Positions 4,657 to 23,963 of a stretch of 25,078 bases of DNA are shown here, in pieces. Source of the stretch: a virus. Taxonomy: Duplodnaviria; Heunggongvirae; Uroviricota; Caudoviricetes. The position numbers were made by a program, and so were the translations under genes. Every line of letters begins with the position of its first letter. The stretch's first letter is position 1. The notes beneath the pieces are model-generated. The model had not been told where the DNA came from and searched no databases. It was given only the letters and a program-made list of their open reading frames with translations. Where the stretch lies: IMG/VR virus record IMGVR_UViG_2671180547_000002. One strand, given 5' to 3'.

Positions 4657-4707
4657 NNNNNNNNNNNNNNNNNNNNNNNNNNNNNNNNNNNNNNNNNNNN
4701 NNNNNNN
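4657..4707. other. Assembly gap (N-run) within the lom region
   Basis: 51 Ns; at least about 400 nt of lom N-terminal coding sequence would have to lie here, so the true length is unknown. Confidence 0.9.
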
Positions 4708-4728: not shown

Positions 4729-7700
4729 TCAACGAATACTGATGCCGGAAGCCGCTTTTTTGGTCACAATCACCGTACAGTCGGTGATATTGCCTGCCCC
4801 CTGATTGCCTTTCTGGAAAATCTTAAACTCCAGAGTGACGCTACCACCACCACTAGGCATATCAATAACTGCACTGTAACTACCGGGAATGGCACCTTTA
4901 GTTTCTCTGGATGCGATTAATACGCCGTTTTTGCGAACTTCAAAACCATAACCCGTGTATCGCGTGCCTCCTGGGTTATTTCCGCTCCCCGGATCGTCAT
5001 ACGCTATACCGTTAAAAATAATGGGCGGAATAATAATCTGGCGGTCAAAGTTATGATCATCGCTTATGGTGACTGTAACCGTCCCGTTTGGTGTTTCCGT
5101 GTTACCCCACGTACCAGCCTGTTTCGGAAATGATTTGGATACAGCTTTAACGAAGTCACCTCTGACCTGAGTCGCCTCCAGCATGCCCTTAATCGTACAG
5201 TTTTCATTTACCGTGACATTGTTGAGCGTCCCGGCGTTCGCATTCACACTGCCACTGATATCCGCATTTTTAGCGGTCAGCTTTCCGTCCGGAGTCAGGG
5301 AAAATGCCGATGGATTTCCACCGCTGGTAATGGTGGGGGCCGTCAGGCGTTTCAGGAACACGTCGTTCATGAATATCTGATCGCCCTGACCAACAAACAT
5401 CGGTTTTGTGTTGCCATTCGCAGGATTAACCATCGCAATCCTGTCCGCCGCCAGCAGCACCTGACTCTGCATGCCGTCAGGGGTGTTCTCAATACCGGCA
5501 CCAATACCCGCGATATAAAGGCGTCCGTCCTGCATCTGCTGCAGCTTCACAGCCCACATGCTGTTCAGGTTATTATTTGTATCAACCTGAACCTTCTGTA
5601 TCTGCTGAATTGCCGCACTCTGGTCTTCCAGTTTCTTATTGACGGTCTGCGTGATTTCATTGCTGACATCCGTAATGGACGTCCTGATTTCAGCCAGGTC
5701 AGGCGCAAGCTGACCGTTATCAATCTGCGTCCACAGCTCCTGAGCCAGATGGGTTTTCCCTATCTCGCCTTTGAAAAAATCCAGATAACCGGATGCATCA
5801 TCACTCGGCTGACCAACAGCCTCCACGAATGCCGATTTGCCAACGGTGTTCACACTGCGGATATAAAAGTAATAATCATGGCCCGGTTTGATATTGATAC
5901 TGGCGGCTATCCAGTACAGCGCCGTGCCAAGATAGCGTGCTGTGGTTTCAACCTGCCTGATATCCGCAATCCGCTTTTCCGAGAACCAGAACTCAAACTG
6001 TACCGTCGGATCATAAACCGCAAGATGCGGCGTGGCGGTTATCTGAAAATAGCCCGGCGTCAGCTCAATCCGCGACAGCGCTGCCGGTGCGGCAATCCGG
6101 AACGATACCGACGCCGGATCGCCCTGCTGCCCCCACGCATTTACTGCCCGGACTGTCAGCCTGTAGTTCCCCAGCGCCAGTTGTGTGAAGCGGTAAGTGG
6201 TTTCCGTCGTCCGGGCCGTGCTGACCAGCCGCTCACTGCCGTCATCCGCTGCCACGGTCAGGCGAAGCATAAAGCTCACCCCCTTCACCACCTTCGGCGT
6301 GTCCCAGCGCGCCAGCACCTGANNNNNNNNNNNNNNNNNNNNNNNNNNNNNNNNNNNNNNNNNNNNNNNNNNNNNNNNNNNNNNNNNNNNNNNNNNNNNN
6401 NNNNNNNNNNNNNNNNNNNNNNNNNNNNNNNNNNNNNNNNNNNNNNNNNNNNNNNNNNNNNNNNNNNNNNNNNNNNNNNNNNNNNNNNNNNNNNNNNNNN
6501 NNNNNNNNNNNNNNNNNNNNNNNNNNNNNNNNNNNNNNNNNNNTCAGGTGCTGCACCGCTGGCGGCGTGACACCATTCACCGTGCCGCTCTGGTCGCCGT
6601 CAAAGTGCGCCCCGTTATCCACGATGGCTTCTTTTTCCGGCACATGCTGCACGGCGGTGATGGCATACGTGCCGTCGTCGTTCTCACGGATACTCACGCA
6701 GCGGAACAGGCGCTGGCGCAACGTCGGCAGCTTCAGCCCCCACACGCTGTATTCAGCAACACCGTCAGGAACACGGCTCACTTTTACCTTCACGCCGTCG
6801 GTGACGGACTGGACCTCCACGCTGACCGGATTCCCCTGCCCGTCAACCAGGCTTATCAGCGTGGTGCCGGAGGATGGCAGCGTGATTTCACGGTCGAGCG
6901 TCAGCGTCCGGGTCTGGCTGTTCACCGCCAGCACGCGCCCGCCGGTGCGGATACCGGCATAGTCATCATCGCAGATTTCAATGACATCGCCCGGTACATG
7001 ACGAAGCCCTTCAGCACCCACGCTGAAATCCACGGTCTGCGTCTCCAGCAGTTCCGTTTTAATCAGCCACAGCCCGGCGCGGTGTGCCTGCCCCCGGCTG
7101 GTACAGCCAAAGGCATCCATCTTCGTGACGTTACGACCGTAACGGACAATGGCCTGCGTATCCTCCACAAGCTCTGTCGCCGTCTCCCAGCCGTTATCCG
7201 GGTCAATCCAGTTCACCTCAACGGCATTATGGCGGTCTTTCAGGGCGCTGAAACTGTAGCGGAACGGCGCGCCATCATCCGGCATCACCACATTACTGCG
7301 GTTATAGGCCCACACCTTATCCGACTGTCGGTCCTGCACGAACGTCAGCGTCTGCCCGTTCCATACCGGCATACAGCGCATCGCCGAGCAGAAATCACTG
7401 AGCACATCCCACGCCTTGCGCTGTGTGGTCAGCCAGGCATTACAGGTGATGCGCGGCTCCGTGCTGCCAAAGCCGTCCGGCACCGACTGGTCACAGTACT
7501 GGCCGATGACATACAGCGCCCATTTATCCACATCTGCCGCACCAAGACGTTTCCCCATGCCATAGCGCGGATGGGTCAGCATATCCCACAGACACCAGGC
7601 CATGTTGTTGCTGTATGCCGGTTTTAACGTTCCGTCCCAGATACCGCTGTATTGCCGCGTCTGCGGATTATAGTTCGACGGCACCTGCAGAATGCGCCCG

Positions 7701-23739: not shown

Positions 23740-23908
23740 CCACGGACAAAAACAGAGAAAGGAAACGACAGAGGCCAAAAAGCCCGTTTTCAGCACCTGT
23801 CGTTTCCTTTCTTTTCAGGGGGTGTTTTAAATAAAAACATTAGGTTACGGCGAAGAAGAACGGAAACGCCTTAAACCGGAAAATTGTCATAAATAGCGAA
23901 AACCCGCG
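23740..23908 (-). promoter_or_regulatory. cosB: terminase (Nu1) binding region with inverted R elements
   Basis: Collinear with the lambda left-end sequence between cosN and nu1; contains inverted GGAAACGACAG / CTGTCGTTTCC repeats. It carries scattered substitutions and a 1-nt indel relative to lambda as I recall it. Confidence 0.8.
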
Positions 23909-23920
23909 CGCCTTCCGCCC
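23909..23920. other. cosN cohesive-end site, variant sequence
   Basis: Flanks on both sides match lambda exactly (GCGAAAACCCGCG on one side, CGTAACCTGTCGG on the other); the 12 bp between read CGCCTTCCGCCC, i.e. GGGCGGAAGGCG in lambda orientation, against canonical GGGCGGCGACCT. Confidence 0.7.
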
Positions 23921-23946
23921 CGTAACCTGTCGGATCGCCGGAAAGG

Positions 23947-23963
23947 ACCCGCAAAATGATAAT
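23947..23963. promoter_or_regulatory. Perfect 17-bp palindrome in the cosQ-proximal region
   Basis: ATGATAATAATTATCAT is a perfect palindrome about 30 bp from cosN; the lambda counterpart as I recall it (GTGATAATGATTATCAT) is imperfect. Confidence 0.5.

Follow-up and report, generated by a model that had tools for sequence, protein, structure and literature searches.

Comparison of sequences indicates that the cosN site in the window (the whole 25,078-nucleotide stretch of viral DNA analysed here) is very probably a functional natural allele of the nicking site used by lambda-type terminases. It belongs to the described class of natural right-half cosN variants, within which it is a minority allele with more changes than the published examples.

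Read on the minus strand, with cosN position 1 at 23920 and position 12 at 23909, the 12-mer GGGCGGAAGGCG occurs once in the window, preceded by GATCCGACAGGTTACG and followed by CGCGGGTTTTCGC. Its lambda counterpart is GGGCGGCGACCT, which in our alignment stands at the same place, between invariant flanks, in lambda/DE3, 2H10, Turner, PhiR34_1 and mEp332. The first-pass annotation had claimed that the site deviates from canonical lambda in its cosB-proximal half and that the first six bases and both flanks remain lambda-like, and the alignment bears this out. The changes are at positions 7, 8, 9, 10 and 12, with C11 unchanged; positions 1-6, the 16 bp to the left of cosN and positions 13-34 to its right are exactly those of lambda. 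With five mismatches this is not the exact canonical lambda 12-mer, and every change from lambda lies within bp 7-12. The conserved left half is that of a lambda-type cos by the published rule (PMC9303873; PMC4669245). The CG dinucleotides on the nick sides are also kept, as in a lambda-type cos, the sequence running from ...TTACG through GGGCGGAAGGCG into CGCGGG...; such CG flanks at the nick positions are conserved among cos sites (PMC4669245).

Five changes in one hexamer are far from what chance would give, because the surrounding divergence from lambda is only 5.5% (measured from -150 to +190 with the 12-mer excluded). The probability of at least five changes within a given hexamer is about 3e-6, or about 1e-3 when corrected for all hexamer positions. 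The rotational symmetry of the 16-bp cosN core amounts to 8/16 bp in the window compared with 10/16 in lambda, and the symmetric pairs CG/CG and G2:C11 are retained in the variant. Ten of the 12 bases of the window 12-mer are G or C, as in lambda, and its predicted duplex free energy is -17.8 kcal/mol, compared with -18.2 kcal/mol for the lambda sequence. The variant also makes a GCGCGC palindrome (window 23906-23911, cos positions 10-15), which is centred on the inferred bottom-strand nick between positions 12 and 13 and is absent at that nick in lambda. A short inversion was considered by eye: lambda GCGACCTC, when reverse-complemented, gives GAGGTCGC, which matches the window sequence GAAGGCGC at 6/8 positions, and this likeness is not relied upon here.

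Table 1. Coordinates of the variant cos site, its subsites and the adjacent terminase genes in the window.
Feature	Position	Strand	Basis or remark
cosN cohesive-end segment, variant GGGCGGAAGGCG	23909..23920	-	alignment; overhangs inferred from lambda
cosB-proximal half of cosN (positions 7-12), C11 alone kept	23909..23914	-	alignment
16-bp cosN core with CG flanks	23907..23922	-	symmetry computed; CG conservation from PMC4669245
Inferred nick	between 23921 and 23920	-	
Inferred nick	between 23909 and 23908	+	
cosQ, GGGTCCT at -30..-24, identical to lambda	23944..23950	-	comparison with lambda
cosB R3, bp 50-65, exact lambda match at lambda spacing	23856..23871	-	R3 position from PMC9026076
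cosB R2, AGAAAGGAAACGACAG, bp 109-124, exact lambda match	23797..23812	-	
cosB R1, CTGTCGTTTCCTTTCT, bp 151-166, exact lambda match	23756..23771	-	
Nu1 (small terminase, TerS), 181 aa	23186..23731	-	98.3% identity to lambda Nu1
A (large terminase, TerL), 641 aa	21286..23211	-	99.4% identity to lambda gpA

The remaining parts of the site are those of a lambda-type cos (Table 1): cosQ at about -30 to -24, R3, R2 and R1 at the lambda spacing, and Nu1 and A adjacent. We take the heptamer GGGTCCT to be cosQ from the lambda literature; around it the only upstream differences from lambda are at -36, -32 and -17. The near-lambda context described in the first-pass annotation holds, both for the 401-bp cos region (94.5% identity) and for the two terminase subunits (98-99% identity). 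The four differences between the window gpA and that of lambda are T151S, D185E, L404R and T466I. More broadly, the reverse strand of the window is collinear with lambda over 17.7 kb at 97% identity, starting at the right end and running through cos as far as the tail-fibre assembly gene. Nu1, A, W, B, C, D, E, FI, FII, Z, U, V, G, H, M, L, K and I are free of stops over their full length, and their proteins are 94-100% identical to those of lambda; from Nu1 to I no morphogenesis gene is truncated, frameshifted or missing (the early region lies outside the window).

A search for the same 12-mer elsewhere, which the first-pass annotation had proposed, found it in IMG/VR, metagenomes, E. coli genomes, plasmids and phages. 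With its flanks, GGGCGGAAGGCG is present in 14 IMG/VR contigs, two of which (L016 and L019) match the window at 100% identity around cos, and in 31 contigs from metagenomes of human gut, food and other origin; none of these 31 carriers starts at the cosN site. Among 5,426 complete E. coli genomes, about 159 (about 3%) carry the variant, and some lambda-like cos is present in 3,475. The genomes were searched with a 52-bp variant-specific query, which canonical sites are unable to seed, having no 28-mer in common with it. About 75 of the complete E. coli genomes match this query over a partial span, as E. coli E24377A does, that comprises the 12-mer and right flank next to a different left flank. 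An exact scan of a one-genome-per-species set gave zero matches, and is uninformative because that set includes only one E. coli genome. Further matches are 23 plasmid records, which range from 34 to 92 kb (mostly about 46 kb) and come from E. coli, Shigella sonnei, E. albertii and E. fergusonii, and two GenBank phage records, neither of which has its sequence written from cos. The plasmid record inspected in full (CP056845.1, L145) is an N15-like telomere phage-plasmid with a protelomerase and SopA/ParB. One of the phage records, PhiR46_1 (PV340565.1, L179), is annotated with telL/telR, ParA/ParB and a complete lambda morphogenesis set, and according to its GenBank metadata was deposited as a complete phage with ECOR13 as propagation host. 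Both L145 and PhiR46_1 are about 46 kb long and carry a lambda-type head, tail and terminase module (about 96% identical) in place of N15's own packaging module; both combine a lambda cosB with the variant cosN. A literature search with the 12-mer and its reverse complement returned only irrelevant papers on plants and Streptomyces, although a dedicated survey (Vahanian, Oh, Sippy and Feiss, 2017, Virology 509:140) may list the allele; a literature search for a paper on the PhiR phages gave nothing relevant.

This distribution bears on two other explanations of the altered site, both of which had been put forward in the first-pass annotation. That the 12-mer is a local sequencing or assembly error could be argued from the draft state of the assembly, with its runs of N. 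However, the exact 12-mer and its flanks recur in more than 200 independent public sequences, finished E. coli chromosomes included, and an error can be practically dismissed. The second explanation is that the site is the decayed nicking site of a packaging-defective, cryptic prophage. It is true that the nicking site is where the changes fall, that some carriers are plainly defective (for example, the E24377A prophage, which has no head or tail genes), and that the window itself is a draft with N runs inside and near J. Decay would nonetheless be improbable at five of six adjacent bases when cosQ, the CG flanks, the left half of cosN and R3, R2 and R1 are all exact, and 19 morphogenesis genes are full length at 94-100% identity to lambda. 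Furthermore, the identical allele stands in diverged backgrounds, among them PhiR46_1 with its named host and the autonomous phage-plasmids of Escherichia and Shigella. An allele conserved across so many diverged backgrounds is maintained rather than decaying, and we regard the site as a marker of a defective prophage to be very improbable.

A functional allele of this kind also fits what is known of other cos sites. The first-pass annotation had assumed that phages with lambda-type terminases all share one 12-nt end, which is contradicted by phiD326 and N15 (different from lambda at positions 9 and 12) and by Gifsy-1 (positions 8, 9 and 11) (PMC4669245), as well as by mEp213/LLS, whose cohesive end is GGGCGGCGCGCT (PMC12315714) and by our computation differs from lambda at positions 9 and 10. 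The cohesive end of N15 reads GGGCGGCGTCCG and has G12 in common with the window allele. As in the window, the variation in N15, phiD326, Gifsy-1 and mEp213/LLS lies within bp 7-12, and the left half and CG flanks are conserved. However, these sites have two or three changes, whereas the window has five, including those at positions 7 and 10. The setting is different too: the window allele lies in a morphogenesis module about 97% identical to that of lambda, with a lambda-type terminase, whereas the TerL of N15 is only about 65% identical to its lambda counterpart. Natural variation in cosN falls mainly at bp 7-12, and cleavage is barely affected by such changes (Feiss, 2015); natural variants keep the CG flanks and cosQ (PMC4669245). 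Many mutations in bp 7-12 have a minimal phenotype, and of one symmetric pair of changes C11G has none, whereas G2C lowers the yield about 10-fold (PMC4669245). Right-half variants are nicked efficiently by lambda TerL, and the contrast between the two symmetric changes was traced in cleavage assays to the proximity of cosB (PMC4669245). The published tests of tolerance consulted here cover one to three changes, whereas the combination of five in the window includes positions 7, 8 and 10.

A second type of cos with the same 12-mer is found in E. coli E24377A. In the E24377A-type cos the 12-mer and the right flank to about +37 are identical to the window, whereas the left flank, the cosB repeats and TerS are different, TerS being 77% identical (54% in the relative L154). 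The N-terminus of this TerS presumably resembles that of phage 21 gp1. In the E24377A chromosome itself (1279601-1286635, L147) the variant cosN lies in a defective prophage with a non-lambda cosB and TerS, from which the head and tail genes have been deleted, so that a lom remnant and a tail-fibre gene directly adjoin the TerS gene. A third class, in the metagenome contigs L165, L166, L170 and L173, combines the variant 12-mer with a TerS that is 35% identical to Nu1 and starts at cos bp 137, and has the sequence GGGGACTGGTGGTGG in the cosB region.

Comparison of these sequences places the variant 12-mer beside at least 11 different left flanks; the cosB types next to it number three, as do the TerS classes. 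The cosB types are the lambda R3/R2/R1 arrangement, the E24377A type with different repeats, and the third type; the TerS classes are the lambda type, one at 77% or 54% identity whose N-terminal DNA-binding region is different, and one that is 35% identical. Across 117 aligned cos regions, nothing between -188 and +35 apart from the five cosN changes is exclusive to the variant. Variant carriers are enriched for linked cosB polymorphisms at +71, +97 and +137, which are also found with canonical cosN, and two Nu1 haplotypes occur with the variant. As the five changes alone are exclusive to the variant, the exchanged unit is essentially the cohesive end's right half.

A further suggestion of the first-pass annotation was a real specificity variant, of which one part stands and the other does not: the cohesive-end sequence is a real variant that recurs widely, whereas a change in terminase specificity finds no counterpart in any strictly associated residue, and three TerS/cosB classes carry the same 12-mer. 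Put in its strongest form, this explanation holds that gpA has co-evolved to need this right half, so forming a new cosN/TerL specificity pair, and it could draw on two observations. The five changes exceed any variant tested in the published work consulted, and gpA T466I (window codon 21814-21816) is found in 13 of 14 variant carriers compared with 8 of 38 canonical ones. However, canonical cosN is found with I466 too, and one variant carrier does without it. Among lambda-type terminases (14 variant and 38 canonical gpA sequences, compared by tblastn), no residue of Nu1 or gpA strictly co-varies with the variant. Of the four gpA residues that differ from lambda, only L404R is absent from canonical carriers, and it is present in just 3 of the 14 variant carriers, the window included. 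The enrichment of T466I is probably linkage rather than function. In addition, the terminases of lambda and N15 lack cosN specificity (PMC4669245). A co-evolved pair therefore seems improbable, and the sequences compared here support the reading of the variant as a cohesive-end sequence allele, with no sign of a change in terminase specificity.

The question then arises of what keeps the allele uniform. A sample of cos sites was gathered with the 12-mer left free and exact flanks required; its members are related and represent several cosB classes. Among the matches listed, 116 of 119 have the canonical 12-mer. For the 99 loci with enough flank, also among the matches listed, mean heterozygosity is 0.017 at positions 7-12, 0.003 in cosQ, 0.007 in the left half and 0.04-0.2 in the spacer. 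Positions 7-12 are tolerant in the laboratory yet nearly invariant in nature, a hint that cohesive ends come in a few discrete types instead of drifting freely. A few other alleles were seen. The isolated phage PhiR70_1 (PV340577.1, L001) has at about 481-492 a cosN with a single change, GGGCGGAGACCT (C7A), and so has A7 in common with the window allele. Rare alleles also lie between lambda flanks at L122, L078 and L108, namely GGGCGTCAGGCG in L122, and GGGCGGCGACCG and GGGCGACGACCT. The L122 allele, from IMG/VR and seen once among the matches listed, has A8, G9, G10, C11 and G12 as in the window but differs at T6 and C7.

It is possible, as a tentative reading of these sequences, that discrete and strongly conserved cohesive-end types assort independently of cosB and TerS. 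GGGCGGAAGGCG would then be a second such compatibility type, kept uniform and partly isolated in that unmatched ends circularise poorly; selection that favours matched ends where concatemers are recombinant or mixed may be what holds the alleles uniform and partly isolates their carriers, though we rate this as rather doubtful. The heterozygosity of positions 7-12, as low as that of cosQ and the left half and below that of the spacer, and the predominance of the canonical 12-mer, both among the matches listed, are consistent with such types, as is the fact that the variant stays identical next to at least 11 left flanks and in three cosB classes. Moreover, a 2-bp mismatch between ends gives a viable yield about four-fold lower (PMC4669245), and lambda and variant ends would mismatch at 5 of 12 positions. 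On the other hand, the conserved block from cosQ to +25 may spread as a unit by recombination (hitch-hiking), TerL contacts unseen in laboratory assays may constrain the block, and the sample consists of related members chosen by exact flanks.

Returning to the functional allele, its use can be outlined by homology to lambda. Nu1 would bind R3, R2 and R1, probably with IHF between R3 and R2, and gpA would thereby be placed on cosN, where its nicks in the two strands would fall 12 bp from each other, immediately within the conserved CG dinucleotides. The virion DNA would then have 12-nt 5' overhangs, GGGCGGAAGGCG at the left end and CGCCTTCCGCCC at the right end as judged from lambda, and these would anneal after injection to give a circular genome. 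Cleavage is little affected by changes in the right half, because TerS bound at cosB anchors the TerL that nicks the bottom strand and so makes this nicking insensitive to sequence (PMC4669245). As both ends are copied from the same cosN, any change in it stays self-complementary and needs no compensating mutation. The right-half patch probably moves between phages, either by recombination in the conserved flanks or by the resolution of mismatched annealed ends. Both routes fit the small size of the patch: the sequence from the 12-mer to about +37 is common even to the E24377A-type cos, and resolution of a mismatched annealed end after cutting at two different cos sites has been demonstrated for lambda/N15 ends (PMC4669245).

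This allele has consequences for both annotation and cloning. Cos finders and annotation pipelines that seek the exact lambda 12-mer miss the ends of such phages and phage-plasmids, and cloning or packaging systems based on annealing to lambda ends would fail with the variant ends. The allele is also a further, more extreme natural case of the functional asymmetry that the Feiss laboratory established for cosN. What goes beyond the published work consulted is that bp 7-12 are nearly invariant naturally, with few discrete alleles across terminase specificity classes. This near-invariance raises the testable idea of cohesive-end compatibility types, with matched-end selection as a possible cause.

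Finally, two observations concern the region of J. The window contains a run of 221 N at 6323-6543 and another of 51 N at 4657-4707, which marks the source as a draft, scaffolded or masked assembly. J is seemingly split into two open reading frames because the longer run lies inside it; a frameshift in J had been suspected and was rejected, as this run explains the split. On the minus strand at 4735-6321, J residues 636-1131 are only 63% identical to lambda J, compared with 97% for residues 1-624, and this C-terminal divergence looks like a swap of the host-range domain.
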